DNA of 64,000 bases from Candidatus Krumholzibacteriota bacterium. Its GTDB lineage: Bacteria > Krumholzibacteriota > Krumholzibacteriia > LZORAL124-64-63. Location of the stretch: NCBI GenBank assembly GCA_022711765.1, contig JAKLEB010000002.1:422368-486367 (forward strand). The letters run 5' to 3'. Of this stretch, positions 5,653 to 47,614 are shown one piece after another; positions within the stretch are counted from its first letter, which is position 1, and every line of letters starts with the position of its first letter. Made by a program: the position numbers and the translations under genes. The notes beneath the pieces are model-generated. The model saw nothing but the letters and a program-made list of their open reading frames with translations. It did no database searches and was not told where the DNA came from.

Positions 5653-7563
5653 ATGTCCGACCCCCGCCACTACATCCTCGGCGCCGCCGGCCACGTCGAT
5701 CACGGCAAGACCGCCCTGATCACGGCCCTGACCGGCACCAACACCGACCGCCTCAAGGAGGAGCAGGAGCGCGGCATCAGCATCGAGCTGGGCTTCGCCG
5801 AGCTGGACCTGGGCGATGGACTCACCCTCGGCGTCGTGGACATGCCCGGCCACGAGCGCTTCGTCAAGCAGATGGTCGCCGGCGCGGGCGGCGTCGACCT
5901 GGCGTTCCTGCTGGTGGCGGCCGACGAGGGCGTGATGCCGCAGACCGTCGAGCACCTGGCGATCCTCGACACCCTCGGCGTGCGCGGTGGCGTCGTGGTG
6001 ATCGCCAAGATCGACATGGTCGACGACGAGATGCAGGAGCTCGCGACCGAGGAGGCGCGCGAGCTCGTCAAGGGCACCTTCCTCGAAGGCCGGCCTATCG
6101 TGCCGGTCTCGGCCCACCAGCGGATCGGGCTCGAGGCGCTCCAGGACGCGCTGCGCGCCGAGGCCGCGGCGCTGCCGGTCCGGAGCGAAAGCGAGCCGTT
6201 CCGGCTGCCGGTCGATCGCATCTTCACCATGCCCGGCGCCGGCGTCGTGGTCACGGGGACCTGCTGGGGCGGGCGCGTGGCGGTCGGCGACCAGCTCGCC
6301 CTCGAGCCGGGCGGCTTCAAGGTTCGCGTGCGCGAGGTCCAGGCCCACGGCCGCAAGGTCGCTGCCGGCGGCGCCGGCCAGCGCCTCGCGCTCGCGCTGC
6401 ACGGCGTCAAGAAGGACGACGTCGAGCGCGGCCACCAGGTGCTGGCCCCGGATTCGGCGCCCGTGACGCGCCTGGTGGACGTGCGCGTCGACCTCTTCCC
6501 GCACTATCCGGGCGTCCTCAAGAACCGGCAACGCCTGCACGTGCACCACGCCGGCCGCGAGGTGCTCGGCCGGATCGTGCTCCTGGACATGGAGGAGCTC
6601 GGCGGCGACGGCCCCCGCTCGGGCCTGTGCCAGCTGCACCTCGAGGAGCCGCTCGTCCCGCGGCGCGGCGACCGCCTCGTGCTGCGCTTCTATTCTCCGG
6701 TCACGAGCATGGCCGGCGGCACGGTCCTCGACCCGGCCCCGCGGCGGCACAAGCGGTTCCAGGACGAGGTGGTCGAGCGCCTCGAGGTCATGGAGGAGGG
6801 CGACCCGGTCGCGCTGTTCCGCCAGAGCCTGCACGCGGCGGGGTTGCAGGGCCTCGCCGTCGCGGACGCGCTGGGTCGAGAGGGCGATCCGGCCGCGCTC
6901 GTGGTGGGCAGGCGCGTGTACGAGCGCGCGCTGCTCGAGGCGGAGGCGGCCGCGGTCGGCGAGGCCGTGCGGGCCTACGCCGAGAAGTTCCCGCTGCGCC
7001 TGGGCATGCCGCGCGAGGAGGTCCGCCGCCGGCGCAAGTTCGGCGGGACCACGCCCGAGTGGAACGCCCTCCTGCAGGTGCTGGCCCCGCTGGGCGGCTG
7101 GGCGGTCGTGGCCGACCGCATCGCCGTGACCCCGGACGGGCCGCCTCTCGGGGCCGGCCTCGCGGCCGGCGCCGCGGCGCGCGAGGCCGCCCTGCGCGCG
7201 TGCGGGCTCGACTGGCCTGGCCTCGACGCGTTCGCGGACAAGGTCCGCTCAGCGCCGCCGCCGCCCACGGGCCAGGGCGAGGAGGAGTATCTCCGCCACC
7301 TCGTGGACCACGGCCGGGCGGTCCAGATCGCCTCCGACTACCTTGTCCACCGCGAGGCGCTGGACGACCTGCTCCATCGCCTGCGCCGGCACTTCGCCGC
7401 CAAGGCGGAGCTGACCTTCGCCGAGTTCCGGGAGCTGAGCGGCCTGACGCGCAAGCTCGGCATCCCGATGCTCGAGTACCTGGACCAGACCGGCCGCACG
7501 CTGCGCACGGGCGATCTGCGCGTGGCGGGGCCGGCGCTCGCGGAGACCACCGACCGGCCATGA
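5653..7563 (+). CDS. selB: Selenocysteine-specific translation elongation factor
   Basis: GAAGHVDHGKT, DRLKEEQERGISIELGFA, VDMPGHERFVKQM, FRLPVDRIF, C-terminal winged helix FRELSGLTRKLGIPMLEYLD. Confidence 0.95.
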   Translation: MSDPRHYILGAAGHVDHGKTALITALTGTNTDRLKEEQERGISIELGFAELDLGDGLTLGVVDMPGHERFVKQMVAGAGGVDLAFLLVAADEGVMPQTVEHLAILDTLGVRGGVVVIAKIDMVDDEMQELATEEARELVKGTFLEGRPIVPVSAHQRIGLEALQDALRAEAAALPVRSESEPFRLPVDRIFTMPGAGVVVTGTCWGGRVAVGDQLALEPGGFKVRVREVQAHGRKVAAGGAGQRLALALHGVKKDDVERGHQVLAPDSAPVTRLVDVRVDLFPHYPGVLKNRQRLHVHHAGREVLGRIVLLDMEELGGDGPRSGLCQLHLEEPLVPRRGDRLVLRFYSPVTSMAGGTVLDPAPRRHKRFQDEVVERLEVMEEGDPVALFRQSLHAAGLQGLAVADALGREGDPAALVVGRRVYERALLEAEAAAVGEAVRAYAEKFPLRLGMPREEVRRRRKFGGTTPEWNALLQVLAPLGGWAVVADRIAVTPDGPPLGAGLAAGAAAREAALRACGLDWPGLDAFADKVRSAPPPPTGQGEEEYLRHLVDHGRAVQIASDYLVHREALDDLLHRLRRHFAAKAELTFAEFRELSGLTRKLGIPMLEYLDQTGRTLRTGDLRVAGPALAETTDRP

Positions 7564-9999: not shown

Positions 10000-11451
10000 C
10001 TACGCGGGCTCCACCCCCGGAGCCACCCCCGGCTCCACGAACAGGCTCTCTTCTCTCAGGCACACGGCGATGCCCGGCGCCGCCTTGCGCGGACGGCGGA
10101 CGTAGCGGCGTTCGGTGTAGACCACCGGGACCAGACCGCTGTGACGCGCCTTGCTGTGCAGGGCCGCCAGGGCCGCGGCTCTCGCCAGCACCGCGCGAGG
10201 CACGGCGTCGGGCCGGCCGCCGGTCCGCAGCACGACGTGGCTGCCGGCCACGCCCTGGGCGTGCAGCCAGAGGTCGCGCGGGTGGCTCGCCCGGTGCGTC
10301 AGCTCGTCGTTCTCCTCGCTGCTGCGGCCGACCCACACCTCCCAACGATCGTCGATGCGGTAGCGACGGAACGGCCGGCTCGGCTCGTCGGGCGCTCGTC
10401 CGCCGGGGCCGTTCGTCTCGCGCAGCAGATCGGCGCCGGCCGCGGCGAACGCCTGGAGGGCGGCGAGGCGCGCCAGGACGACCGCCGGGAGCTCAGCGTC
10501 GGGGGAGCCGGGACGCGGCCCTGCGCGCAGCGGCGCGAGGTCGGCCAGGGCGCCCGCCGCGCTCGCTTGCTCGGCCCGCGCGGCCTCTAGCCGCTCGGCG
10601 ATGACGCTGCGGCCGCGCGCCGCCTTGCGCGCGAGCCGGAACAGCCGCTCGAGGTTGGCGTGCGGCGCCAGCGCCGGGTCGAGCGCGAGCGTGCGCGGGC
10701 GACCGTCGCGCGGGTCGGTCAGCGTGATCATCGACGTGCCGCGCTTCACGGTGGACAGGTGGGCCGCGAGGGTCTCGGCGTCGCGGCGCCTCGCCTCGCC
10801 GTCGTCGGCGCGCGCGAGGTCGCCGGCCAGGTTGGCGACGAGTCGGTCGGCGGCGGCGAGGCGTCGCGCGAGAGCGCGTTCGAGCTGATCGCCGAGCGCG
10901 GTCTCGCGCTGCCTCGCCAGCCGGGCCAGGCCGAGCGCGGTCCAGTCGGCGAGCCCGGCCGGCGCGGGCGAGGCGGGCGCAGCGAGCGGCGCGGCGACGT
11001 CGAGCAGGCAGGGATGCGGCGACGGGTGCAGGGTCCACAGCAGGCGGCCCGAGTCCTCGATGACGACCGCGCCGCCCCGGCTGCCGAAGAGCTGATGTCG
11101 CAGGTAGCGCGGCCCCGCCGCGGTCGCGAACTCGAGATGCACGACCAGGTCGCCGCTCAGCAGCCCGACGTCGGCGAGCCGGGCGTCGCTCAGCAGGTCG
11201 GCGAGCGGATCGCCGCGGCGGGCCGGCAGCGCCTCGCGCAGCGGCCCGGGCAGGGGCCCCGGGCAGGGGAAGACGAGCACCGCGCCCGGCAGCGCGCCGA
11301 GGAAGAGACTGTCGCGAGGGTCGCCCGCGAGCTGCAGGTTCGCCCAGCCCGGGCCGGTCACGGCGCGGTGCAGCGCCCTCCCGGCGGCCCGTTCCCGCCA
11401 GGCCGCCAAGAGAGGGGCCAGCCGATCGCGGTCGCGCCAGGTGGCGGGCAT
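10000..11451 (-). CDS. NFACT (RqcH/FbpA-like) protein with NFACT-R RNA-binding domain
   Basis: LDPALAPHANLERLF coiled-coil loop; C-terminal VWVGRSSEENDELT..DLWLHAQGVAGSHVVL..AALHSKAR..VVYTERRYVRRP. Confidence 0.85.
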   Translation of the reverse strand: MPATWRDRDRLAPLLAAWRERAAGRALHRAVTGPGWANLQLAGDPRDSLFLGALPGAVLVFPCPGPLPGPLREALPARRGDPLADLLSDARLADVGLLSGDLVVHLEFATAAGPRYLRHQLFGSRGGAVVIEDSGRLLWTLHPSPHPCLLDVAAPLAAPASPAPAGLADWTALGLARLARQRETALGDQLERALARRLAAADRLVANLAGDLARADDGEARRRDAETLAAHLSTVKRGTSMITLTDPRDGRPRTLALDPALAPHANLERLFRLARKAARGRSVIAERLEAARAEQASAAGALADLAPLRAGPRPGSPDAELPAVVLARLAALQAFAAAGADLLRETNGPGGRAPDEPSRPFRRYRIDDRWEVWVGRSSEENDELTHRASHPRDLWLHAQGVAGSHVVLRTGGRPDAVPRAVLARAAALAALHSKARHSGLVPVVYTERRYVRRPRKAAPGIAVCLREESLFVEPGVAPGVEPA

Positions 11452-13549: not shown

Positions 13550-14155
13550 ATGATCCTGCTGATCTCGGGGCCCTCGGGCGCCGGCAAGAGCACCGTCTAC
13601 CACGAGCTGTTGCGGCGCGACCCGCGGCTCGGCTTCTCGGTGTCGACGACCACGCGGCCCGCGCGCGCCGGGGAGAAGGACGGCGTCGACTACGACTTCG
13701 TCGACGACGCGGAGTTCGACCGCCTGGTGGCGGCCGGCGCCTTCCTCGAATGGGCTCGCGTCCACGACCGCCGTTACGGCACGCGCCGCGACCAGGTGGC
13801 CGCGCTGGAGGCGGCCGGCAGGATCCCCCTGCTGGACATCGACGTGCAGGGCGGCGTGCAGGTGCTCGACCAGGTCGGCGTCGAGGTGGTGTCGGTCTTC
13901 GTCTGGCCGCCGTCCTGGGCGGCGCTCGAGGCGCGGCTGCGGGAGCGCGGGACCGACAGCGACGCCGTGATCGCGACGCGCCTGAAGAACGCGCGGTGGG
14001 AGATCGGGTACGCCGACCGGTACGCGTACTGGGTCGTGAACGACGAGGTCGAGGCTGCGGTCCGGCGGCTGGAGGCGATCCTGGTGGCGGAAGGGTGCCG
14101 CCGGGAGCGGTGGGGCGCAGCGCCGGTGCAGGCGCCGGCGCGCGAGCTGGAGTGA
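13550..14155 (+). CDS. gmk: Guanylate kinase
   Basis: SGPSGAGKST, SVSTTTRPAR.GEKDGVDYDF, FLEWARVHDRRYGT, LLDIDVQG. Confidence 0.96.
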   Translation: MILLISGPSGAGKSTVYHELLRRDPRLGFSVSTTTRPARAGEKDGVDYDFVDDAEFDRLVAAGAFLEWARVHDRRYGTRRDQVAALEAAGRIPLLDIDVQGGVQVLDQVGVEVVSVFVWPPSWAALEARLRERGTDSDAVIATRLKNARWEIGYADRYAYWVVNDEVEAAVRRLEAILVAEGCRRERWGAAPVQAPARELE

Positions 14156-14225
14156 ACGGCGACGCACGGACCGAGCCCCTGGCGTCCGCGCTTCGCTGTC
14201 AGCGACCACCGGCACGAGCCGTCGG

Positions 14226-15212
14226 TCACCGCGCCGCCGGCACCGCCGCGCGGTCGGGCCGTGGCGTCGCCACCCCGCGCGCGAGATGGCGCGCGAGCGT
14301 GGCGGCGATCGGCAGGCCGGTCGCCATCTCCACGTAGAGGAACTGGCCCGCGGGGTTGATCTCCAGGAACACGTATTCGCCGCCGGGAGTGAGCCGCAGA
14401 TCGATGGCGCCGTACTCGAGGCCGAGCCGGCGCATGAGGGCGAGCAGCCGCGCCGAGACCGCCGGCGGCAATTCGTGCGCCCGGTACTCGATCTGCGAGT
14501 TGAACCGCACGTCCACCTTGTACTCGCCGGTCTGGGAGTGGGCCTCGGCGGCCAGGAGCTCCTCGCCGACGGCCGTGACCCGCAGGTCGACGACGGCCGG
14601 GATGTACTCCTGGAAGATGACAGGCGCGAGGCGGATCGCCTCGGCGTACGCCTCCTCTTCATCGCGCAGGATCCTGGTCTCGCGCCAGGCGTGGAAGTTC
14701 GCGAGGAACTGCTTGTAGACGACCTGGCCCGGGCGGTCGCGCCAAAAGGCGCGGGCCGCCTCCGGGTCGTTGGTCATGAGCGTCTCGGGAATGGCGAGCC
14801 CGACCTCCTTGGCGACCGCCAGCTGCCACGGCTTGTGGGCGGCCGCGGTGTCCGCGAAGATGTCGTTCACCCAGAGCGCGGCGCTGGTCTGCCACATCCC
14901 CTGGAACGCGGTGGCGGCTTCGCTCATCGCGAAGTGGCGCATCGCCGGATCCGACACCGCGGCAGGGATCCCGAATCCCTGGGGCCGGCGCCACCAGAAC
15001 GCCTTCACCTCGTCGAGCCCCACCCGCATCCCGTCGGGGAACGTCAGGGAGAGGTCGCGGGTACCGTTGCGGCCGAACCGCATGCCGAGGCTCATACGCA
15101 GGGGGAATTCGCCGAGGTCGAGGATCCGCACGCGGGTCTCGCCCAGGAGGGCCAGCTCCCGCATGACGGCCTGCGCGTGGATGTCCTCGGGGGCGGAGAT
15201 GATGAGGATCAT
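14226..15212 (-). CDS. RimK-like ATP-grasp peptide ligase, graspetide (MvdC/MvdD-like) macrocyclase
   Basis: FWWRRP, WVND...AAHKPWQL..AKEVGLAIPETLMTNDP, VVYKQF, APVIFQEYIP..DLRVTAVG, YGAIDL..TPGGEYVFLEINPAGQFL; directly downstream of a Thr/Lys/Asp/Glu repeat protein. Confidence 0.9.
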   Translation of the reverse strand: MILIISAPEDIHAQAVMRELALLGETRVRILDLGEFPLRMSLGMRFGRNGTRDLSLTFPDGMRVGLDEVKAFWWRRPQGFGIPAAVSDPAMRHFAMSEAATAFQGMWQTSAALWVNDIFADTAAAHKPWQLAVAKEVGLAIPETLMTNDPEAARAFWRDRPGQVVYKQFLANFHAWRETRILRDEEEAYAEAIRLAPVIFQEYIPAVVDLRVTAVGEELLAAEAHSQTGEYKVDVRFNSQIEYRAHELPPAVSARLLALMRRLGLEYGAIDLRLTPGGEYVFLEINPAGQFLYVEMATGLPIAATLARHLARGVATPRPDRAAVPAAR

Positions 15213-15264
15213 GACGGCCTTTCCGGTGAAGCGGGGGGCGCCTCCGCCGAGGCGCCCCGCTCGA

Positions 15265-16152
15265 TCAGAACATCATGCCGGGGAGGTTCCACTGAGGCGG
15301 TTGATAGCCGCCCCCGGGCTGCTCGACGAGCGTGCCGCCGCCGACCTCGACCCAGGTGATCGGGTCCTGGATCGGGTCCTTGGTGAGTTCCTTGATGGTG
15401 GGCTGCTGGTCGAAGTAAGGGAACGTGCGGATGTCGACCAGCGGTGTCGTGTGCGGCTGGTCGAAGAAGTGGACCGTCTGCGGCTGATCCAGCGTCGGGA
15501 TCGTGGCGACCATGTCGAGCGCCACGGCTGTCGCGGCCTGGGCCTGGGCCTGCGCCTGGAACTGCGGCAGGCCGGCGGCCGCCGCTTGCCGCGCGATCAC
15601 CTCCGGCGGCGCGTGATGCGGCGTGGCCATCACGAACGGGATCGTGCCAAACTGACCCGGATCGATGGGATCGCCGAGTTGCTTGCCGGGGCCGATCACC
15701 TCCTGGATCGTGATCGGATCCTGGATCGGGTCCTTCGTCAATTCCTTGACCGTGTCGAAGGGCTGCTCCTTGATCGTGTCCCAGGGCTGTTCCTTGATCG
15801 TGTCGATGATCGGATCCTTGGGCTGTTCCTTGATTGTGTCGATCGGCGCTTCCTTGATGGTGTCGATCGGCCCCTTGGCGATGAGATCGCGAATCCGCGC
15901 CGGATCCAGCTTGAGCTCGAGGATCTTCTGCGTCCCGGTCTCCTGGACGATGCGGTACGACTCGACCGCGGCGACCGGCAGCTCGATGGTCTGGCCGCCG
16001 GTCATCAGGATGAACTGGTCGTTCTTGGACGATCTCATGACGGCGCCGACCATGGTCACCGGGCCCGTGACCTCGCGCGCCTCGGGCGCCTGGCGCAGGT
16101 AGTCGGCGAACGGCTTGTCTCCGCGCCCCGCCGACGGGTTCTTCTCGGGCAT
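15265..16152 (-). CDS. Putative multicore graspetide precursor (295 aa)
   Basis: GAGGAG RBS + ATG 16152; DT[IV]KE x5, KELTKDPIQDPIT x2, PFVMATPHH, TxxxxD x4; 52 bp upstream of the ATP-grasp gene. Confidence 0.8.
   Translation of the reverse strand: MPEKNPSAGRGDKPFADYLRQAPEAREVTGPVTMVGAVMRSSKNDQFILMTGGQTIELPVAAVESYRIVQETGTQKILELKLDPARIRDLIAKGPIDTIKEAPIDTIKEQPKDPIIDTIKEQPWDTIKEQPFDTVKELTKDPIQDPITIQEVIGPGKQLGDPIDPGQFGTIPFVMATPHHAPPEVIARQAAAAGLPQFQAQAQAQAATAVALDMVATIPTLDQPQTVHFFDQPHTTPLVDIRTFPYFDQQPTIKELTKDPIQDPITWVEVGGGTLVEQPGGGYQPPQWNLPGMMF
15742..15870 (-). repeat. Coding tandem repeat, ~24-bp unit (xDTIKEQP) x5
   Basis: Repeated GGCTG[TC]TCCTTGA[TC]xGTGTC on + strand, in frame in the precursor. 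Confidence 0.9.
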
Positions 16153-16383
16153 GGCACACACTCCTCGGGGTAGCTTCCGTGTTGGTCTATGACGCGGCGG
16201 CGCCGCGCCGGACGCGAGCCGAGCCGAAGCTGACGATTCGAGGAGATCCGGTGGGAAGCGCAGCGATCTTCTCGGGTGCGGGAGGTTCCGACGAGGGCCA
16301 TCGAAACGGGCGAGTCCCCACGGCCACCTGAACGCCGATCCGGCTCCTGCACGTGCGTCGAAGATGCTGGCTGAGCCGAAATT

Positions 16384-16412
16384 AGAATATTTCAATCCTA
16401 TTTGCTTGTCAA
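16384..16412 (-). promoter_or_regulatory. Sigma70-type promoter of the precursor/ATP-grasp operon
   Basis: Minus strand TTGACA-17 bp-TATTCT in an AT-rich patch ~230 nt upstream of ATG 16152. Confidence 0.75.
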
Positions 16413-16502
16413 CGGACTCTCGCGACTCCCCGCGGCCGGCGCGGCCTTGGACCGACGACCCGCGCGCACCTCGGGTAGCCGGCGGTACCGTCGTGCCCGC
16501 GG

Positions 16503-18794
16503 TCAGGCCTCGCCGACCCGCTTGCGCAGCTCGTCCAGGTTCAGATCGATGGACGTGCGGGATCGCAACAGGTTCTCGAGGACCTCGTCCGGCGGGCGGC
16601 GGCTCGCCTCGCCCGGCGGCAGATCGCCCAGGCGGCGGTTCAGGCTCTCCCAGACGTCCCGAGGCAGCACGCTCTCGAGATACTCCAGGCTGGTCCCGCG
16701 CAGCACGACGTCGCTGGTGAGCAGGCCCTTGTAGGAGATCTGCAGCGGCTCGCGCGGCAGCACCAGCGAGAGCAGCGTGAAGACGTATTCGAGGCTGCGG
16801 CTGCTGCGCGCGCGAAGCGTCGCGTCGCCGGCGATGGTCGATTCCGCCGGCGGCGGGTCGTCGATGAGCCGCCGGTTCTCCCACAGGCCCTTCTCGACGC
16901 GCGCTTCCCGCAAGACCGCCGCGTAGACGGACCTGCCGTCGACGGCGAGGGACGGCTCGCGCTCGCGCAGGCTCGCGAGCGCGGCGGCCGCCCGGAAGCG
17001 GACCTCGAAACGCTGGTCGTCCAGAGCCGCCGTCAATCCGGCGCACGCGCGCGCCGTGGCACAGGTGGCGAGGATCCGGGGGATGCGCCGGCGGACGGCG
17101 AAATCCTCGGCGGGGTCGATCAGCCGGTCGATCAGCTGGCCGGTGATCGCCGGCGCCGCTCTCGCGAGCGCTCGCGACGCCCAGGCGGTGACGTCGTCCC
17201 ACGCGAGCAGCGTGGTAACCTGGCCGGCGATGACGGGGCTCACGACGGATAGCTGCCGCAAATGCGCGCGGACGCGGCGCGCGTCGCCCGAGCGCAGCTC
17301 GACCAGGGCCGCGACCTCGGGATCCACGGCCCGCGCGGACCTGTCCGGCGGCGGCGGGTGCAGGGCGGCGGTCTTCCGGTCGGCCTCGTCGACGTTCGCC
17401 GTCGCCGCAAGGACCGTCCGGCGGACGTCGCCCAGCTTGAGGTCGTCGAGGGTCATGGAGAGGTCGAGACCGCTGAACGTCTCCATCAGGCTCGGCATGG
17501 CGTGCGCCTCGCCGGGGTCGAGCTCGAGGACCTTGGCGCGGTTGATCAGGCTCGCCTCGAGCGCGCGGACGTAACCGGGGCGCAGCGCGCGCGTCACGAG
17601 AAACCCGAGGACCGAGATCGCGACCGCGAGCAGCAGGAGCACCTGGCCGGAGGCCGCCGCCGGCAACAGGATGACGGCGCGGACGAGCACGCCGCCGACG
17701 ATGTCGCCGACGCGGTCGGCGCCGACGTCGATGATCGTCCGGGTGGCGCGGCGATCGCCCGGAACGACCGGCGTGAAGAGGAGCTCGTAGCTGGACCGAT
17801 GCAGCGATCCCTGGACCACGGCCTCGAGGCCGCGCAGGAAGCCCAGGCTGGCGAGGCTCACGAAGGGCGCGACGATCAGCCCGCCCACCGACAGCAGGGC
17901 CGGCCGGACCGCCATGCCCGGCGCGATCCCGATCCGTTCGATGAGGCGGCGCGTGACGCCGGCCTGCACGGCGAGCGTGACGAGCGACACGACCGTGTAG
18001 AAGATCGCGAAGAACCGCACGAGCTCGGCGCTGGTCGCGTAGGTCTGCGTCGCCCGGGCCTTGAACAGGAAGTCCACGAGCGTCGCCGCCGCGTTGCCGA
18101 GCAGGACGACCAGGGCCAGGTTGCGCAGGTAGGGGACCCGGCGCAGCACCTGGAAGCCGGACTCGCTCGCCGGGGGCCGGTCGGCGCGGGCCGCCGGCCG
18201 GTCCGACCGCGGCCTGGCGGTCGCGTGATGCGAGGGCAGTTGCCGCAGGAGGGCCGCGCAGACCAGGTGGAAGCCGGCGATGATGGGCAGCACCCAGAGG
18301 ATGCCGAGCGACGCGCTGACCCGGTCGGCGATCATGCCGCCGAACAGTCCGCCCGCCGTGGCGCCGCCGGCGATCCGGCCGATGTTCCGCTTGGCGGTCC
18401 GCGGGTCGAAGCTCTCGTTGATGGTCGACCAGAATCCCGAGATGAGGATCGAGCTGATGACCGCGACGTGCAGGTAGACGACGACAGCCGCGATCCGGAT
18501 GGTCACCGTCGCCAGGAGCCACTCGCCGAGAAGGAGCAGCCCGCTCGCGATGAAGAACGGCGGGATGACGCGCGCCGGTCCGTACCGCGCGACCCACCGC
18601 GCCGCGACCAGCACGGCTCCGATGGAGAGCACCGCCGAGATGACCAGGACCAGCGGCAAGGTCGAGATCGGGTAGTTGGACAGGAACAGCGCGTCCCGCA
18701 CGGCCTTGCCGGCGATCTGGGTGGCGATCATGACCGCGGCGCACGCCGACGCCGTGACGACCGGTGGGGCGGCGGCTGACCGGCGCCCGCTCAT
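16503..18794 (-). CDS. TLC/Npt (ATP/ADP translocase-like) transporter fused to HEAT repeats
   Basis: ~12 TM segments with KAVRDALFL, FWSTINESFDPRTAKR, SSYELLFTP, IIDVGADRVGD; C-terminal helical repeats (LDDQRFEVRFRAAAAL); ATG overlaps kinase stop (ATGA). Confidence 0.75.
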   Translation of the reverse strand: MSGRRSAAAPPVVTASACAAVMIATQIAGKAVRDALFLSNYPISTLPLVLVISAVLSIGAVLVAARWVARYGPARVIPPFFIASGLLLLGEWLLATVTIRIAAVVVYLHVAVISSILISGFWSTINESFDPRTAKRNIGRIAGGATAGGLFGGMIADRVSASLGILWVLPIIAGFHLVCAALLRQLPSHHATARPRSDRPAARADRPPASESGFQVLRRVPYLRNLALVVLLGNAAATLVDFLFKARATQTYATSAELVRFFAIFYTVVSLVTLAVQAGVTRRLIERIGIAPGMAVRPALLSVGGLIVAPFVSLASLGFLRGLEAVVQGSLHRSSYELLFTPVVPGDRRATRTIIDVGADRVGDIVGGVLVRAVILLPAAASGQVLLLLAVAISVLGFLVTRALRPGYVRALEASLINRAKVLELDPGEAHAMPSLMETFSGLDLSMTLDDLKLGDVRRTVLAATANVDEADRKTAALHPPPPDRSARAVDPEVAALVELRSGDARRVRAHLRQLSVVSPVIAGQVTTLLAWDDVTAWASRALARAAPAITGQLIDRLIDPAEDFAVRRRIPRILATCATARACAGLTAALDDQRFEVRFRAAAALASLREREPSLAVDGRSVYAAVLREARVEKGLWENRRLIDDPPPAESTIAGDATLRARSSRSLEYVFTLLSLVLPREPLQISYKGLLTSDVVLRGTSLEYLESVLPRDVWESLNRRLGDLPPGEASRRPPDEVLENLLRSRTSIDLNLDELRKRVGEA

Positions 18795-20446
18795 GGGTCG
18801 AGCGCCGCGGATTCGACGGCCGCGAACGCGCCGTCCGCGGAACCGGCGTAGAGATGCGGCAGGTTGACCCGCCACCACTGCTCGGCGCGCTCTCGCGTCC
18901 ACGGCGGCAGCGTCGCCGCCACCTCGGCGAGCATCACGCTGAGTTCTTCGGCCGAACCCGGCCGGTCGTCCGGATCCTTGGCCAGGCAAGCCCGCACGAT
19001 CGCCTCCAGGCGCGGCGGGACCTCGATCTCGCTGCGCGCGCTCATGGCCGGCGGCGTCTCCTTCACGTGCTGCACGAGGACCGACACGGGGGTGCCCGAG
19101 AACACCATCTGACCGGTCAAGAGCCAGTAAGCGACACAGCCCAGTCCGTAGATGTCGGCGCGCGGGCCGGCCGCGTGGTCGCCGAGGATCGCCTCCGGCG
19201 CCATGAATCCGGGAGTGCCGCTGGTGAGTCCGGCGCCGCCGAACCGGGTGGTCGCGTCGGTCGATTCCCCGACGTTCCGGACGAGTCCGAAGTCGAGCAC
19301 CTTCAGGACGTCGAACTCGCGGCCCCGCCGGCAGGTGAACAGGTTCGCCGGCTTGACGTCGCGGTGGATCAGGCCCCGATGGTGGGCGTCGGCGAGGGAA
19401 TCGCAGGCGGCCCGCAGGAAGTGGATCGCCCGCTCCGCCGGCACGGGTCCGTTCTCCTGTACGAGCGTCTTGAGGTCGCGCCCCTCGAGGAGTTCCATGA
19501 CGTAGTAGAACACGCCGTCGTCGCCGGTGCCGAAGTCGTAGAGCACGATGGAATGCGGAGACGAGAGCATCGCCGTCGCCTGCGCCTCGCGCTCGAAGCG
19601 CCGCAGCCCCGTCGCCCCGCCGTCGTCGCCGTTGGCGCCGGCGCGATCGGGCCGGATCAGCTTGACGGCGGCGGGCCGCCGGAGCATCCGGTGCTTGGCC
19701 GTCCAGACCTCGCCCATCCCGCCCGCGCCGATCTTGCGGACGAGCTGATAGGCGCCCAGGCGCTGTGCCTTGGACACGCTCCGGGCGAGGTGGAACACGC
19801 GGGATGCGCACGCGTAGCCGATGCCGACGCAGATGAAGACGGTCGTGGCGAGCCGCGCCAGCGCGATGTACGGCGATCCCACGAACTCGGCCGGAGTGCC
19901 GTGGACGAGGACCGACAGGGTGGCCGTGGCCGGCAGCGTCGCCGCGGCGAGGAGCGACGCCACGAGGATCTGCCGGGGCGGCAGGGTCACCACGCTGGCG
20001 TACATGACGATCCACACGCCGAGCCAGCTGACGCCGAACTCGAACGCGTGGTTCGTGAACGTGCTTTCCCAGCGCCAGGACCGGGCCGCGATCCCGAGGG
20101 ATGACACGATCAGGAAGATCGTCGCCAGGCGGCAGTAAGCGAGGCTCGAGCAGCGGTCGCACCGGCACCGGAACGCGACGAAGGACGCGCACCCGATCGC
20201 GCCCAGCGCGATCACGGCGTCGAACGCCGGCGGGAGCTGGAACTCGCGGACCGCCGCCAGCGAGATGAGCCAGCTCGACAGGAACACGACGGCATAGCCC
20301 ACGGCGTAGGTCGTGGCGGCCGCGGCGAGGGCCCGCAGGGCGCTCGCCTGCGTCTCGCGGTCCAGTTCGACGAAGCGGGACGGGCCGCTGGTCTCGTTCG
20401 ACTCGGCCCTGGGTCGGATGGCGATCGGCACGACCACGCTGAGCAC
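18791..20446 (-). CDS. Membrane-anchored Hanks-type Ser/Thr protein kinase
   Basis: N-terminal TM helices; IGAGGMGEVW, AAVKLI, FEREA, HRDVKPANL, KVLDFGL, GTPGFMAPE, DIYGLG; start approximate. Confidence 0.92.
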   Translation of the reverse strand: MLSVVVPIAIRPRAESNETSGPSRFVELDRETQASALRALAAAATTYAVGYAVVFLSSWLISLAAVREFQLPPAFDAVIALGAIGCASFVAFRCRCDRCSSLAYCRLATIFLIVSSLGIAARSWRWESTFTNHAFEFGVSWLGVWIVMYASVVTLPPRQILVASLLAAATLPATATLSVLVHGTPAEFVGSPYIALARLATTVFICVGIGYACASRVFHLARSVSKAQRLGAYQLVRKIGAGGMGEVWTAKHRMLRRPAAVKLIRPDRAGANGDDGGATGLRRFEREAQATAMLSSPHSIVLYDFGTGDDGVFYYVMELLEGRDLKTLVQENGPVPAERAIHFLRAACDSLADAHHRGLIHRDVKPANLFTCRRGREFDVLKVLDFGLVRNVGESTDATTRFGGAGLTSGTPGFMAPEAILGDHAAGPRADIYGLGCVAYWLLTGQMVFSGTPVSVLVQHVKETPPAMSARSEIEVPPRLEAIVRACLAKDPDDRPGSAEELSVMLAEVAATLPPWTRERAEQWWRVNLPHLYAGSADGAFAAVESAALDP

Positions 20447-26352: not shown

Positions 26353-28071
26353 TCACCGCACCAGCACCAGCTTCACCTGCCGGCTCGTCCCTCCGCCGCT
26401 CAGCCGCGCCAGGTACACCCCGCTCGGCATCTCGCGGCCGGCCTGATCGCGTCCGTCCCACGTCGCCGAGTGCCGGCCGATCGCGAGGACGCCCGACTGC
26501 AGCCGCCGCACGCAGCGCCCCCGCACGTCCAGGACCTCGAGGTCGACCGCGAGCGGGCGCGCCACCGAGAACGCGAGCCGCGTCAGGGGGTTGAACGGAT
26601 TCGGCCACGCCGGAGCCAGGGCGATGGGCGCCGCGGCGACCGGGCCGGCCGGCGCCGCCGTGACGTCCAGGTACTGGACCGCGGCCAGCGCGTCGAGGAT
26701 TCCCCAGCCGTAGTCGTTGTCCGGCGCGCCCGCGTGGTCGGCCGTGCTGCGCAGGGCCTCGCGCAGCCGGAAGGGGCTGGTTCCGGGATGGGCGCACAGC
26801 ACGAGCGCGCCGACGCCCGCGGCGAGCGGGCACGAGAAGCTGGTGCCCGACGCGTTCCCGTACTCGCTGAGCGACCCCGGCAACACGACGTGGTTGTTCA
26901 CGCCCAGGGCGCTGACGTCCGGCTTGATGCGGCCATCGGCCGTCGGGCCCGGCGAGCTGAAGTAGGCGATGTTACCCGAGAGGTCGACCGCGCCGACGGC
27001 GATCACGCTGTCCCCGTCGGCCGGCGCGGCGATCGTGCCGGTCGACTGGCGGTAGTTGCCGGCGCTGTTGAACACGGCGACGCCGAGAGCCGCGGCCTGG
27101 TCGGCGGCGATGGTGGTCGTGCAGGTGTTGCCGTCGAAGTCCGCGAACGTGTACCAGTCGTCGTACGCGAGGCTCGAGCTCACGAGGTCGCAGCCGTTGG
27201 CCTCGAGCCATTCGAGGCCCTCGACCCAGAAGTCCTCCTCCGCGGGCACCTCCTGGCCGATGTCCTCGGTCTTGGCGAGGTAGAAGGCCGCGGCGTAGGC
27301 GGGCCCGATGAGCGAGCCGGGCGCGTAGCCGCCGATCGTCGAGAGCGTCATCGTGCCGTGGTTGTCCTGGCCGCTGGGGTCGCCCGGCTCGTCGACCACG
27401 ACCGGGTCGTCGTTGACGAAATCCCAGGCGCCCCGCAGATCGAGGCTGGCGAAGGCCAGGTGGCTGGTGTCGAACCCCGAATCGAGCATGCCGATCACCA
27501 CGCCCTCGCCGTGGAACCCCAGGTCGTGGACGGGCGGGACGTTGACCTGCGCGAGCTCCGGCAGGCTCTCGCCGTACTCGAGGCGATCGGCACGGGGGCT
27601 CGCGGGCGCCGCGGGCTCGAGGACCGGGAGCGGCTCGCGCGGCGCGGCGCCCCTGACCGGCTCGAGCCGCGCGACGAACGGAAGGGCGGCCACGCGCGCC
27701 AGCTCGTCGGCGCCGAGGATCACGCTCGCCGCCGCGAGCCAGCGGCTCTCGGCGCGGATCTCGAGGCCGAGCGCGCGCAGCCCGGCGAGGTAGTCCGGGT
27801 CGTTCGGCAGGTCGATCGCGGTGACGAGCGGCAGGTCGCCCCGCGCACGCGCGCGACGCTCGAGCGACCGTTCGCTCAGCCGCTCGCCCGCAGCGACGAG
27901 GGCGGCGGGATCGCGCTCGAGGTCGCCCTTGTCGGCGAAGAAGACCCAGACCGGCCGCGGCCCCGATTCGAGAAGGGCCGGCAGTTCCTCCGCCACGTTG
28001 GCCGCGCGGGTCGCCGCGGCCGCCAGGCCGACCAGGGAGACCAGACCCAGCGCGCCGAAGATCCTCTGCAT
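26353..28071 (-). CDS. Secreted S8 (subtilisin-like) peptidase with FlgD-Ig/T9SS-like C-terminal domain
   Basis: Triad motifs MLDSGF, DNHGTMT, GTSFSCP; AWPNPFNP..WDGRDQAGREMPSGVYLARL. Confidence 0.9.
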   Translation of the reverse strand: MQRIFGALGLVSLVGLAAAATRAANVAEELPALLESGPRPVWVFFADKGDLERDPAALVAAGERLSERSLERRARARGDLPLVTAIDLPNDPDYLAGLRALGLEIRAESRWLAAASVILGADELARVAALPFVARLEPVRGAAPREPLPVLEPAAPASPRADRLEYGESLPELAQVNVPPVHDLGFHGEGVVIGMLDSGFDTSHLAFASLDLRGAWDFVNDDPVVVDEPGDPSGQDNHGTMTLSTIGGYAPGSLIGPAYAAAFYLAKTEDIGQEVPAEEDFWVEGLEWLEANGCDLVSSSLAYDDWYTFADFDGNTCTTTIAADQAAALGVAVFNSAGNYRQSTGTIAAPADGDSVIAVGAVDLSGNIAYFSSPGPTADGRIKPDVSALGVNNHVVLPGSLSEYGNASGTSFSCPLAAGVGALVLCAHPGTSPFRLREALRSTADHAGAPDNDYGWGILDALAAVQYLDVTAAPAGPVAAAPIALAPAWPNPFNPLTRLAFSVARPLAVDLEVLDVRGRCVRRLQSGVLAIGRHSATWDGRDQAGREMPSGVYLARLSGGGTSRQVKLVLVR

Positions 28072-43769: not shown

Positions 43770-44951
43770 GTGATTGCCAGGTTGACCGCGGTGCTGGTGG
43801 GGGTGCTGTCGATAGCGGCGGCCCCGACAGCCGCGCGGACATGGCACGTGGAAAAGGACGGTTCCGGGGACTACACGGTTATCTACGAGGCAGTGGACGC
43901 CGCCGCCGCCGGGGACACGATCCTGATTGGACCGGGGAGATTCGAAGAATACCGTCTCGAACCGGATTATGCCTCTGAGACCTACTGCTGTGTGCACGTT
44001 ACGACGTCCGATCTAACGCTCATCGGTAGTGGTGCGGAGGCAACCACGATCGGGCTGGATTACTTCGACCCGCATTACGAATACTACGTAATAGGAATCT
44101 CCAGTCTTGAGGTAGACGTCAATATTGAGAATTTAGCGGTGAATGGTGTCTTCGAGGGAGTCCATTTCGAAGGATCGAATTTGTATGTCCAGCATTGCGA
44201 CTTTGTCGATTGCGACGGCGGTGTCGTTACGTGGAGTGTTTCGGAGACCACAGTCAATCGGTGCCGCTTTATCGGCACTGTACATAATGGACTCTTTGGT
44301 GCCCACGCTAACGGAGTATCGGTTTCTGAGTGCGAATTTACGAATGTATCCAGGTATGCAATAACGGGCGTTGGAGGAGTAGGATGGGTAGTCCGCGATA
44401 CACAGTTCCACGACGGTAGCGGGGGCATACAGTTTGAGCAAGGAGCCACGGGGATTGTTGAAAGATGCTGCGTTCGAGTTGCCGGGGGGAATCCGCCGGC
44501 GATCGGCCTTCTCGATGGAACGTGTTTTGTTCTTCACGATAACGAATTTCAAGGTGAAACGTGGGCGGCAGGTTTTGCCACGGGCGGAACAACAGTTACG
44601 GCAAGAAACAACGTCTTCATTGGCGGAACGGGCACGACAATAGAGATCAACCGTACGCCGATGGACTTCCACCAGAACGACATCATCAACGGCGGCGGTC
44701 TGTCGGTCATCGCGAAATGGGAACGGGGATCCCTCGACGTACCCTACGATCTCGACCTCACTGGTAACTACTGGGGGACGGATAACCCAGCTCAGATCTC
44801 GGAGTGGATTGAGGATTACGGTGACCACGGCCCTATGGAGCTCTGGTGGTACGTGACAGTGCGCTACGATCCGTACGCGAGCGAATCAACCCCTGTCGAG
44901 TCTCACACGTGGACCGAGGTGAAGCAGATGTTCAGGCCGTCCGGGAGGTAG
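43770..44951 (+). CDS. Secreted right-handed parallel beta-helix protein with C-terminal TPVESHTWTEVKQMFR motif
   Basis: Signal peptide, WHVEKDGSGDYTVIYEAVDAAAAGDTILIGPG, beta-helix repeats, DLTGNYWGT; low-GC core. Confidence 0.8.
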   Translation: MIARLTAVLVGVLSIAAAPTAARTWHVEKDGSGDYTVIYEAVDAAAAGDTILIGPGRFEEYRLEPDYASETYCCVHVTTSDLTLIGSGAEATTIGLDYFDPHYEYYVIGISSLEVDVNIENLAVNGVFEGVHFEGSNLYVQHCDFVDCDGGVVTWSVSETTVNRCRFIGTVHNGLFGAHANGVSVSECEFTNVSRYAITGVGGVGWVVRDTQFHDGSGGIQFEQGATGIVERCCVRVAGGNPPAIGLLDGTCFVLHDNEFQGETWAAGFATGGTTVTARNNVFIGGTGTTIEINRTPMDFHQNDIINGGGLSVIAKWERGSLDVPYDLDLTGNYWGTDNPAQISEWIEDYGDHGPMELWWYVTVRYDPYASESTPVESHTWTEVKQMFRPSGR

Positions 44952-45196
44952 GGCGGGGCGCGGCCAACGTCTCCTTCCCTTCCATAGAGCGGGCTGTCAA
45001 GACGCCCGCGATACCGGCTTGATACCAGCTTCCGCGCCGCGATCGCCAGCCGCGCTTTGCGCGCGCGGTAGCTTTGCTGCACGCGCCCCCGACAAGCGGC
45101 TTGGACCATGCCCGGCATTGTGTTTTCGTCCGCGACCGCTATCATTCCCGTTCCAGCGATTCCACCGCCGCGACCCGGCCTCTGCGAGGAAGAGCC

Positions 45197-47614
45197 ATGG
45201 CCTACGACCCCTCCGCCATCGAGCCCCGGTGGCAACGCTACTGGGACGAGCACGGGACGTTCCGCACGCCCGACTCGAGCGATCGGCCCAAGTACTACGT
45301 CCTCGACATGTTCCCCTATCCGTCGGGACAGGGCCTACACGTCGGCCATCCCGAAGGGTACACGGCGACCGACATCCTGGCGCGCTACAAGCGGATGCGC
45401 GGCTTCAACGTGCTGCACCCGATGGGTTGGGACGCTTTCGGCCTGCCGGCGGAGAACTACGCGGTGCGCACGGGAACCCACCCGGCGATCACCACGCGGC
45501 GGAACATCGAGACCTTCAAGCGCCAGCTCAAGATGTTCGGGTTCAGCTACGACTGGGAGCGCGAGATCGCGACGACCCATCCCGAGTACTACCGCTGGAC
45601 CCAGTGGATCTTTACCCTGCTCTACCGCCAGGGGCTGGCGTACGAGGCGGAGGTTCCGGTGAACTGGTGCCCGGAACTGGGCACCGTCCTCGCCAACGAG
45701 GAGGTCACCGACGGCAAGAGCGAGATCGGCGGCCACCCGGTGATCCGCAAGCCGATGAAGCAGTGGATGCTGCGGATCACCGCCTACGCCGAGCGCCTCC
45801 TTGCCGACCTCGAGGGCCTCGACTGGCCCGAATCGATCAAGGACCTCCAGCGCAACTGGATCGGCCGCAGCGAGGGCGCCGAGGTCGACTTCCCCGTCGT
45901 CGGCTCCGGGCGCAAGCTGCGGATCTTCACGACCCGGCCGGACACCATGTTCGGGGCGACCTACATGGTGATCAGCCCCGAGCACCCCTGGGTCGACGAG
46001 CTCGCGACGGCCGGCGCCCGCCAGTCCGTCGCGGCCTACCGGGCCGAATCCGCCGCCAAGAGCGACCGCGATCGCCAGACCGCGAAGGAGAAGACCGGCG
46101 TCTTCACCGGTACCTACTGCCGCAACCCGGCCAACGGCCAGCGGATCCCGATCTGGGTCGCCGACTACGTGATGATGGGCTACGGAACCGGCGCGATCAT
46201 GGCGGTGCCCGGGCAGGACGAGCGCGACTGGGAGTTCGCCGAGGTCCACGGCCTGCCGATCGTGCGGACGGTGCAGCCGCCCACCGACTTCACGGGCAAG
46301 GCCTACGTCGGCGACGGTCCCGCGATCAACAGCGGCTTCCTCGACGGCCTCGGCGTCGCCGAGGCCAAGGAGCGGATGACCGCCTGGGTCGAGGCGCAGG
46401 GCGTCGGCGAGCGCAAGATCAACTACAAGCTGCGCGACTGGCTGTTCAGCCGGCAGCGCTACTGGGGCGAACCGTTCCCGCTCTTGAAGCTGGCGGACGG
46501 CACCGTCCGCGTGCTCGAGCCGGACGAGCTGCCGCTCATGCTCCCGCAGGTCGACACCTACAAGCCGGCGGGCACCGGCGAGGGTCCGCTGGCGACGATC
46601 GCGGACTGGATCCACACGACCGATCCGGTGACCGGCCAGACGGCCTCGCGCGAGAGCAACACGATGCCGCAGTGGGCCGGGTCGTGCTGGTACTACCTGC
46701 GCTTCGTCGATCCGCGCAACCGGCAGCGGGCCTGGGACCCGGACAGGGAACGCTACTGGTTGCCGGTCGACCTCTACCTCGGCGGCACCGAGCACGCGGT
46801 CCTGCACCTGCTCTACGCGCGTTTCTGGCACAAGGTCCTCTACGATCTCGGCCTCGTGTCGACGAACGAGCCGTTCCAGTGCCTGCGCAACCAGGGCATG
46901 ATCCTCGGCGAGAACGGGGAGAAGATGTCCAAGAGCCGCGGCAACGTCGTGAATCCGGACGACGTCATCGCGGACCACGGCGCCGACGCGCTGCGCATGT
47001 TCCTGATGTTCCTGGGACCCCTGGACCGCGACAAGCCGTGGAACCCGCGCGGCATCGAGGGCCTGCACCGGTTCCTGGACCGGGTCTGGCGGCTGTTCTG
47101 CGACGAGGGCGAGACCCTCTCGGCGCGGGTGCAGGACGTTGCGCCCGACGACGCGTCGCTGCGCGCCCTCCATCGCTGCATCGCCGACGTCACGGAGCGG
47201 ACCGAGAAGCTGAACTTCAACACCGCGATCAGCGCGATGATGATCCTCGTCAACGAGCTGACCCAGCGCGACGCGCGGCCGCGCGCCGTGCTCGAGCCGT
47301 GCGTGTTGCTGCTGGCACCCTACGCGCCGCACCTGGCCGAGGAGCTGTGGCGCCTGCTGGGCCACGGCGAGTCCCTGGCCTATGCGCCGTGGCCCCGGAG
47401 CGACGAGCGGTACCTCGTCCAGGCGACCGTGACCTACGTGGTCCAGATCAACGGCAAGGTCCGCGAGCGGCTCGAGGCGCCCGCCGACGCGGGCGAGGAC
47501 GAGGTGCGCGCGCTGGCCCTCGCGAGCGAGCGGGTCCAGAAGTGGCTCGAGGGCAAGCAGGTCCGCAAGACGGTCTTCGTGCCGGGCAAGCTCGTGGGGC
47601 TCGTGGTCGGCTGA
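45197..47614 (+). CDS. leuS: Leucyl-tRNA synthetase
   Basis: [45 protein letters not shown]. Confidence 0.98.

Follow-up and report, generated by a model that had tools for sequence, protein, structure and literature searches.

A graspetide-type ATP-grasp ligase and its 295-residue repeat-protein partner in a Krumholzibacteriota genome: a candidate system for side-chain cross-linking of full-size proteins

Two adjacent genes, one for an ATP-grasp ligase of the graspetide type and one for a repeat protein that is its putative substrate, lie in a 64,000-nucleotide stretch of Candidatus Krumholzibacteriota DNA (contig JAKLEB010000002.1, positions 422,368 to 486,367 of the forward strand), and the whole of this stretch is referred to here as the window. 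The base composition of the window is ~72% GC, and mechanically predicted open reading frames (ORFs) are therefore numerous and long; two of those on the minus strand are real genes, i.e., the ligase gene (14226..15212) and the substrate, or precursor, gene (15265..16152), and all features of the pair described below are on the same strand. The precursor gene begins with an ATG at 16152, preceded by GAGGAG, and encodes 295 amino acids (aa). Gene calls made independently on 19 public contigs with an identical protein give the same start methionine, as do the N-termini of homologues, while the ORF as listed extends far upstream because stop codons are scarce at this GC content. The two genes are separated by an intergenic spacer of exactly 52 bp (15213..15264), with a weak ribosome-binding site (GGAAAGG) ahead of the ligase ATG, and the closest homologous locus (P0002) has a spacer of identical length but other neighbour genes. 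Upstream of the precursor gene, in an AT-rich patch of a 350-bp intergenic region, is a sigma-70-like site (TTGACA-17-TATTCT; 16412..16384) that matches the consensus at 10 of 12 positions and is the sole such site in 2.8 kb (13900-16700), where 0.2 would be expected. An initial annotation of this DNA had claimed this promoter, the 295-aa repeat protein and a ligase 52 bp downstream of it, and all three are present. We infer that the site acts as a promoter, in which case the 5' untranslated region would be ~230 nt long; a scan of that region against Rfam found no family.

The ligase (328 aa) consists of a pre-ATP-grasp domain (residues 1-118) followed by an ATP-grasp domain that makes up the remainder. 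It matches the Pfam model of the MvdD pre-ATP-grasp domain (PF21068, E = 8e-10) and aligns from end to end with the NCBIfam models TIGR04187 (245 bits), TIGR04184 (183 bits) and TIGR04185 (172 bits), and its best relatives of solved structure are MdnB (E = 1.4e-40), 9bou, MdnC, AMdnB, CdnC and PsnB. The signature residues of the ATP-grasp fold are invariant in its clade, including E284 and N286 in FLEINPAGQ, and an AlphaFold2 model of a homologue 63% identical to the ligase had a predicted local distance difference test score (pLDDT) above 90. These results uphold its earlier designation as a graspetide macrocyclase, and the ligase is a homologue of such macrocyclases in a distinct, unnamed subfamily. 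MdnB/MdnC and PsnB phosphorylate the side chains of Asp and Glu, which are thereby joined to Thr, Ser or Lys as omega-esters or omega-amides.

The precursor had no match in Pfam or PHROGs and only a chance-level match in NCBIfam (E = 0.12), and its homologues range from 63% down to ~30% identity. Its N-terminal domain (15877..16116; residues 13-92) is predicted to consist of a helix, five beta strands and a second helix, the helices lying at residues ~14-21 (with PFADYLR at 14-20) and 84-92. AlphaFold2, using 23 homologues, modelled residues 30-90 with a pLDDT of ~90 and the rest of the precursor as disordered. A Foldseek search of the domain against the PDB returned only weak SH3- and PH-like matches (E of at least 0.03) and no functional lead, and homology to the small 'precursors' published for graspetide Groups 30 and 32 was considered and rejected, as no meaningful similarity was found.

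Behind this domain the protein is repetitive. At the DNA level the precursor gene shows a 24-nt period (2.7-4.5 copies), and at the protein level its tail holds five DT[IV]KE units, three KDPIxD units and one distal TIKELTKDPIQDPIT unit. Repeat block 1 (15709..15876; residues 93-148) contains the five DT[IV]KE and two of the KDPIxD units; the block offers seven Lys-x4-Asp and six Thr-x2-Glu pairs as predicted cross-link sites, and it is predicted by AlphaFold2 to be disordered when unmodified. A second block (15409..15531; residues 208-248) is made up of the five units TAVALD, TIPTLD, TVHFFD, TTPLVD and TFPYFD, between which only the Thr and the Asp recur; it aligns with the units TSVYAD, TALYFD and TTPWFD in homologues. 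It is followed by repeat block 2 (TIKELTKDPIQDPITW; 15352..15399; residues 252-267), in which K254 and D259 show no variation, and T252 and E255 are conserved to at least 90%, in 23 homologues of the same architecture (type A, described below). A pattern search of the precursor found none of the known microviridin (TxKxPSDx(D/E)(D/E)), plesiocin (TTxxxxEE) or thuringinin (TxxTxxxExxD) cores, in agreement with the mismatch to these motifs that had been reported at the outset. The extreme C-terminus, PPQWNLPGMMF (15268..15300), is conserved; conservation reaches at least 90% at W288, P291 and G292 in the type-A alignment, and the motif is common to loci L014, L017, L019 and L024. In one type-A subgroup that spans several phyla, WNLPGMMF is nearly invariant and always forms the final residues of the protein; a role in docking or sorting is conceivable.

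Related loci were collected from both sides. A search with the precursor returned nine loci (from Anaerolineaceae, Nitrosomonas, Marivita and other Alphaproteobacteria), and in all nine a ligase homologue of 44-65% identity begins no more than ~170 bp downstream. A search with the ligase alignment, using clade-specific patterns, matched ~450 species-representative genomes in Acidobacteriota, Gemmatimonadota, Chloroflexota, Proteobacteria, Actinomycetota, Bacteroidota, Cyanobacteria and other phyla, and the partner counts that follow cover the best 80 of these ligase loci. Each was inspected for a short conserved sequence, here called the PF box, which in the window protein reads PFVMATPHHAP (15607..15639; residues 172-182). 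A strict form of the box (P-F-x-[LMI]-[AS]-T-P-H-[HQR], corresponding to residues 172-180) was found in the ORF that ends immediately upstream on the same strand in 56 of the 80 loci and nowhere else within them; with a relaxed form that adds the degenerate variants PFALATAHQAP, PFVLACGHQAP, PFSLAAARQAP and PFVQAGPY, the count rose to 74. The remaining six comprise a fusion (L022), a variant box (L047), three ligases truncated at contig edges (L021, L053 and L091) and one unclear case (L018). In L022, from a Gemmatimonadota metagenome-assembled genome (MAG), a single ORF of 507 aa (P0033) contains the N-terminal domain, three repeats, the PF box and the ligase; this may be a real precursor-ligase fusion or may reflect a lost stop codon or a frameshift in the assembly. 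Downstream of the ligase there was no conserved ORF family in the 80 loci, and no family occurred in the flanks of more than 10 of them. In L060 (2962-3399) and four other loci whose partner carries an M43 peptidase, the partner gene is directly preceded by a small conserved ORF, which might be an accessory gene of that subgroup. In a neighbour-joining tree, ligases with the same type of partner fall together, which is the pattern expected of enzyme-substrate pairs that diversify together. The initial annotation had named ligase orthologues that mostly lack a neighbouring repeat protein as an observation that would speak against its interpretation; instead, nine of nine and 74 of 80 loci are paired. 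Taken together, it is very probable that the ligase modifies its neighbour.

The partners fall into two broad architectures. About half are of type A and, like the window protein, consist of an N-terminal beta-barrel domain, which is conserved across them, a tail and the PF box; a type-A profile, run against 1.84 billion proteins, recovered 380 representatives at 50% identity. The remaining partners (type B) are whole enzymes, 500-840 aa long and in one reading frame with the tail, with Pfam matches to Trypsin_2 (13), Trypsin (9), Peptidase_M43 (11), Peptidase_S8 (7) and Tyrosinase (4), to which a protein database search added astacin-type partners. In type B the enzyme is followed by repeats of ~9 residues (consensus P-T-L-K-F-R-D-D), a VKxPxLDKxPxxD element, a Gly/Pro linker, PFVLSTPHHSMAW, and a Q/E-rich helical C-terminus of ~70 aa that is predicted to form a coiled coil. 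In minimal partners, which come from Kribbella and Leptolyngbya, there are just one or two T-x4-D units, and these follow the box. The box is C-terminal to the cores in the enzyme-fused relatives, and has cores on both sides in the window protein. No signal peptide was found in the inspected precursors and enzyme-fused partners, the N-termini of type B included.

Across all of these architectures, the PF box is the sole element common to the partner proteins of the ligase clade. When 72 partners are aligned, no column other than P172 is invariant, and F173 reaches at least 90% conservation. A box that stays constant next to cores that vary is what is commonly seen for a recognition sequence and its core, and the PF box and its variable cores are read here in the same way. 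At the sequence level, the box also fits P-h-h-x(1,2)-h, a general leader motif of graspetides that is thought to be the equivalent of the microviridin leader element PFFARFL (PMC8939145). The PF box is therefore a candidate for the recognition element of the ligase, and probably the right one.

Within residues 93-295 of the window protein there are 14 [K/T]-x4-D pairs, compared with 2.5 +/- 1.4 in shuffled sequences, and none of 20,000 shuffles reached 14. Put differently, 14 of the 17 Asp residues in this region sit exactly five residues after a Lys or a Thr, and nine of the 10 Glu residues sit three residues after a Thr. The same spacing emerged from a count over the 160 residues ahead of the box in 75 partners: Asp at +5 from Thr, Ser or Lys was the most enriched combination (557 observed vs. 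214 expected, 2.6-fold), and +5 was the best spacing in 34 of the 75 proteins, with +4 best in 12. The units that share it are otherwise unrelated (KEQPWD, KDPIQD, TVHFFD, TSVYAD, TNILxD, TLKFRD within TLKFRDD, and KxPWxD), and on these comparisons the register is the one constant among the variable cores. A ring that runs from Lys or Thr at position i to Asp at i+5 has, in our estimation, an even chance of being the actual linkage.

Considering these results together, we propose, with a probability of roughly 60%, that the two genes form a bicistronic operon in which a graspetide-type ligase cross-links the protein encoded just upstream, forming many small rings under the guidance of the PF box, and that this protein is not subsequently cleaved. 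The ligase would dock on the box at residues 172-182 and would use ATP to activate Asp and Glu carboxylates as acyl-phosphates, a chemistry known for MdnB/MdnC and PsnB. The spacing statistics suggest that each would then be attacked by a Lys amine or a Thr hydroxyl, located five residues upstream in the case of Asp and possibly three in the case of Glu. This could yield up to ~14 macrolactam or macrolactone rings, possibly with nine Thr-Glu esters in addition, on either side of the box. The product would remain a protein, consisting of the N-terminal beta-barrel domain and a multiply stapled tail, rather than a set of small exported peptides, since relatives carry the same tail on whole proteases and tyrosinases. 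Conceivable roles for a stapled tail are stiffening, resistance to proteolysis beside a protease domain, and latency of enzymes made in the cytoplasm. The initial annotation had offered a cross-linked protein that is never cleaved as one of two possibilities, and it is this one that the comparative data favour, as the tail sits on whole enzymes and no peptidase or exporter is conserved. We consider the absence of cleavage to be slightly better than an even proposition.

Several observations weigh against this proposal. None of the named NCBIfam maturase families has a curated cut-off that the ligase reaches (350 bits for TIGR04187, 475 for TIGR04184 and 425 for TIGR04185). There are also two candidate leader motifs, namely the PF box, which is universal, and PFADYL, which is confined to type-A partners; the N-terminal helix that bears the latter (PFADYL/KSFAQFLEEQ) closely resembles the microviridin leader PFFARFL and could be the true recognition helix in the type-A subgroup, the PF box then having some other role. 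In an AlphaFold2 model of the fusion protein P0033 the ligase half folded well and neither element was docked onto it (pLDDT ~28-32 for both), but the substrate half had no alignment depth, so that this outcome does not count as a negative. The spacing statistics are inflated by the repeats themselves and by shared ancestry. Finally, ATP-grasp loci do not as a rule encode the leader peptidase (Makarova 2022, PMC8939145), so that cleavage could still occur where no protease is linked.

A different explanation, to which this last point also lends support, is that the pair is a classical multi-core RiPP system (ribosomally synthesised and post-translationally modified peptide): unlinked proteases would excise small macrocycles, e.g., protease inhibitors like plesiocin or those of multi-core microviridins, from the modified protein, with the N-terminal domain and the PF box acting together as the leader. 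Repeated cores that hold both donors and acceptors do resemble those of multi-core graspetides, all graspetides characterised up to 2022 are protease inhibitors (PMC8939145), and in the window an MFS-type membrane protein is encoded directly upstream. However, the 80 loci show no peptidase or transporter conserved alongside the pair, the MFS gene is unique to this genome, and neither the confidently folded N-terminal domain nor the lack of signal peptides in the precursors and enzyme fusions that were inspected favours excision and export. A tail carried on enzymes of 500-840 aa is, moreover, hard to square with a disposable leader, and we regard this explanation as unlikely. Still less support can be given to intermolecular cross-linking, in which Lys and Thr of one tail would be joined to Asp and Glu of another to form covalent oligomers or a matrix. 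The disordered tail does present many donors and acceptors, and the Q/E-rich predicted coiled coil of the enzyme-fused relatives could bring tails together, yet all characterised enzymes of the family form intramolecular rings (PMC8939145, PMC13097080), and the strict +5 register fits a ring within one molecule while not being needed between molecules; this arrangement is accordingly very improbable. The weakest alternative, that the neighbour is not the substrate at all but a regulator, scaffold or unrelated partner of a ligase that performs RimK-like amino-acid addition or acts on a small metabolite, draws on the sub-threshold maturase scores and on weak RimK-family matches but is opposed by the RiPP-specific MvdD pre-ATP-grasp domain, the adjacency in nearly every locus, the one fusion, the congruent trees and the fixed register of acidic residues with nucleophiles, and can be given hardly any credence.

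Extended to the clade as a whole, the proposal of an uncleaved, cross-linked protein leads to a broader and more tentative one, on which we would bet slightly against rather than for. ATP-grasp macrocyclisation would act as a post-translational modification of proteins, directed by a portable PF box placed before, within or after the cores, and stapled tails would serve as a latency, inhibitor or protection module on cytoplasmic proteases of the trypsin-like, subtilisin-like, astacin and M43 types and on tyrosinases; the precursor assignment of the published Group 30 (see below) would then be wrong, with the astacin as the substrate. Work on graspetide ligases has centred on small cyclic peptides as their products, and genome-mining tools are geared to short precursors; to judge from this locus and its relatives, graspetide mining has a considerable gap. 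Should the proposal be true, recognition sequences within or behind the cores, a layout known so far from engineering alone, would have a natural example, and a simple portable unit (a [K/T]-x4-D ring plus a tag) would be at hand for stapling proteins. It would then also point to a new mechanism by which bacteria might control or protect proteases and tyrosinases that lack signal peptides, and would change the precursor assignment of one published graspetide group. The system occurs in cultured bacteria, among them Marivita cryptomonadis CL-SK44, Caulobacter hibisci KACC 18849, Paraburkholderia antibiotica G-4-1-8, Rivibacter subsaxonicus DSM 19570, Robertkochia solimangrovi and Kribbella spp.

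The surroundings of the pair in the window are particular to this genome. On the downstream side, gmk and yicC converge on the ligase gene. Directly upstream of the operon is the gene for an MFS/TLC-like membrane protein with C-terminal HEAT repeats (16503..18794, minus strand; 763 aa), which overlaps by 4 bp with that of a membrane Ser/Thr kinase (18791-20446, minus strand; 551 aa). None of these four neighbours is conserved in 93 related loci: the MFS/TLC-like gene is missing from all 93, and the kinase has weak homologues in two. The statement in the initial annotation that no peptidase, acetyltransferase or exporter is adjacent is thus correct in that the locus has no GNAT, and not strictly true as to an exporter, given the MFS/TLC-like gene directly upstream. 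A role for that protein as a dedicated exporter was considered and dropped, the gene not being conserved with the pair.

Elsewhere in the window, there is no second PF-box protein, and this includes a subtilisin/mycosin-like S8 protease (26353-28071, minus strand), the C-terminal region of which weakly matches models of the type IX secretion system sortase PorU and of FlgD; being without the box, this protease is unrelated to the ligase system. A protein with an NFACT/RqcH-like C-terminal domain (fibronectin-binding protein A family) is encoded at 10000-11451 (minus strand). SelB, the selenocysteine-specific elongation factor (5653-7563, plus strand; TIGR00475, 353 bits), indicates that the organism probably uses selenoproteins. 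The same protein is ~64% identical to that of Candidatus Krumholzibacteriia MAGs and 83% identical to that of an uncultured MAG labelled Fibrobacteraceae, and the attribution of this DNA to a candidate-phylum organism is plausible. Gemmatimonadota, which the names attached to homologues had suggested as the host, was given up because the SelB comparison favours a Krumholzibacteriota-like lineage. An ORF at 43770-44951 (plus strand), adjoining leuS (45074-47614), occupies the stretch of lowest GC content (61% vs. ~72%); it encodes a signal-peptide-like N-terminus and a repetitive, beta-helix-like protein, and may have been acquired horizontally. Over the whole 64 kb, there was no tRNA gene and no Rfam family at the gathering threshold.

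Among known graspetide systems, those of the microviridins contain the nearest relatives of solved structure, MdnB and MdnC (5ig8, E = 1.4e-40; 5ig9, E = 1.6e-37), and have the same ligase architecture of a pre-ATP-grasp and an ATP-grasp domain. Units of the window protein begin with T-x-K, as does the microviridin core TxKxPSD, and the resemblance of PFADYL to the leader has been mentioned. In contrast, the window has one ligase rather than two, no GNAT and no TxKxPSDx(D/E)(D/E) core, and no transporter that can be counted with the pair, the MFS-type neighbour not being conserved. Its substrate is a protein of 295 aa with a folded domain and an internal PF box, whereas microviridin precursors have an N-terminal leader helix, and its ligase, at 183 and 172 bits, falls far below the respective cut-offs for MvdD and MvdC. 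Plesiocin (PsnA2/PsnB) is similar in that a single ligase acts on a precursor with several tandem cores, and PsnB (7drm) is detectable with the window ligase at E = 8e-21; it differs in that its core, TTxxxxEE, is absent from the window protein and in that PsnA2 is a short peptide with an N-terminal leader. We know of no enzyme-fused relatives of plesiocin.

A parallel in terms of size is corallotide (group 15, CorA/CorB), in which a precursor of ~22 kDa receives five KxxxD isopeptide rings (Carter et al. 2026, PMC13097080). It shares with the window pair a large precursor, simple repeated one-ring motifs and a single ligase that matches TIGR04187 (PMC13097080), which is also the best NCBIfam match of the window ligase, though below the cut-off, and the corallotide product behaves as a protein-like material (PMC13097080). 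However, the register predicted for the window protein is i to i+5 and not i+4, the precursor having three incidental K-x3-D matches compared with 14 [K/T]-x4-D pairs, and Thr is predicted to be used besides Lys. The window locus also lacks the 2-oxoglutarate- and Fe(II)-dependent (2OG-Fe(II)) oxygenase and the beta-lactamase, no PF box has been reported for CorA, and corallotide is restricted to Corallococcus whereas the ligase clade of the window spans many phyla. With regard to the position of the recognition sequence, ThfB tolerates a leader placed C-terminal to the core in an engineered ThfA, a layout described as not seen in nature (PMC13003496). This 'follower' version of fuscimiditide corresponds to the enzyme-fused relatives and in part to the window protein, in which the recognition sequence would likewise be C-terminal to cores; here, though, the layout appears to be native, and in the window protein the cores flank the box on both sides.

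A further connection exists with Group 30, one of 43 graspetide groups in an updated RODEO survey (Carter et al. 2026, PMC13097080). This group comprises 65 clusters with a synthetase, an astacin (98.5%) and a YscW-like protein (80%), and its published 'precursor' is the YscW-like protein of 112 aa, with the astacin treated as a neighbouring protease (PMC13097080). Our astacin loci, L010 and L011, carry the gene set so described, and their ligases are 39-45% identical to that of the window. Only loci of the astacin type have a small ORF (113-122 aa; L010, 8132-8500; L011, 8282-8623) that overlaps the ligase gene at its end, and in L011 this ORF is YscW-like (PF09619) and 47% identical (E = 3e-24) to the published 'precursor'; its product may be a partner protein, a chaperone or a substrate. 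Yet the astacin proteins of both loci bear the TIKE/KDPIxD repeats of the window together with a PF box, so that, in our view and from the motifs they carry, the C-terminal tail of the astacin itself is more likely to be the substrate of Group 30 than the YscW-like protein. The window has neither an astacin nor a YscW-like protein and represents a sister architecture rather than a member. The other enzyme types, i.e., Trypsin_2, M43, S8 and tyrosinase, appear in none of the group co-occurrence tables of the survey (PMC13097080), and a search designed for short precursors seems to have missed most of the ligase clade.

The precursor families of Makarova 2022, 174 in number (PMC8939145), include no ATPHH, WNLPG or KDPI-type precursor of this kind in the material accessible to us, the family's motif strings were not found in the corresponding portion of the supplement to the 2026 RODEO survey (PMC13097080), and literature searches returned nothing relevant on graspetides with astacin, tyrosinase, Gemmatimonadota or these motif strings. 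Within the limits of those sources, the suggestion in the initial annotation of a new or little-studied class has held up, and the ligase clade is apparently both widespread and unrecognised. What separates the window pair from the named groups is the nature of its substrate: in place of a short precursor with a removable leader there is a 295-aa protein that has a folded domain, and beside it neither a peptidase nor an exporter is conserved. The pair thus falls outside all named graspetide groups; it would function in the same manner, but on a full-size protein.

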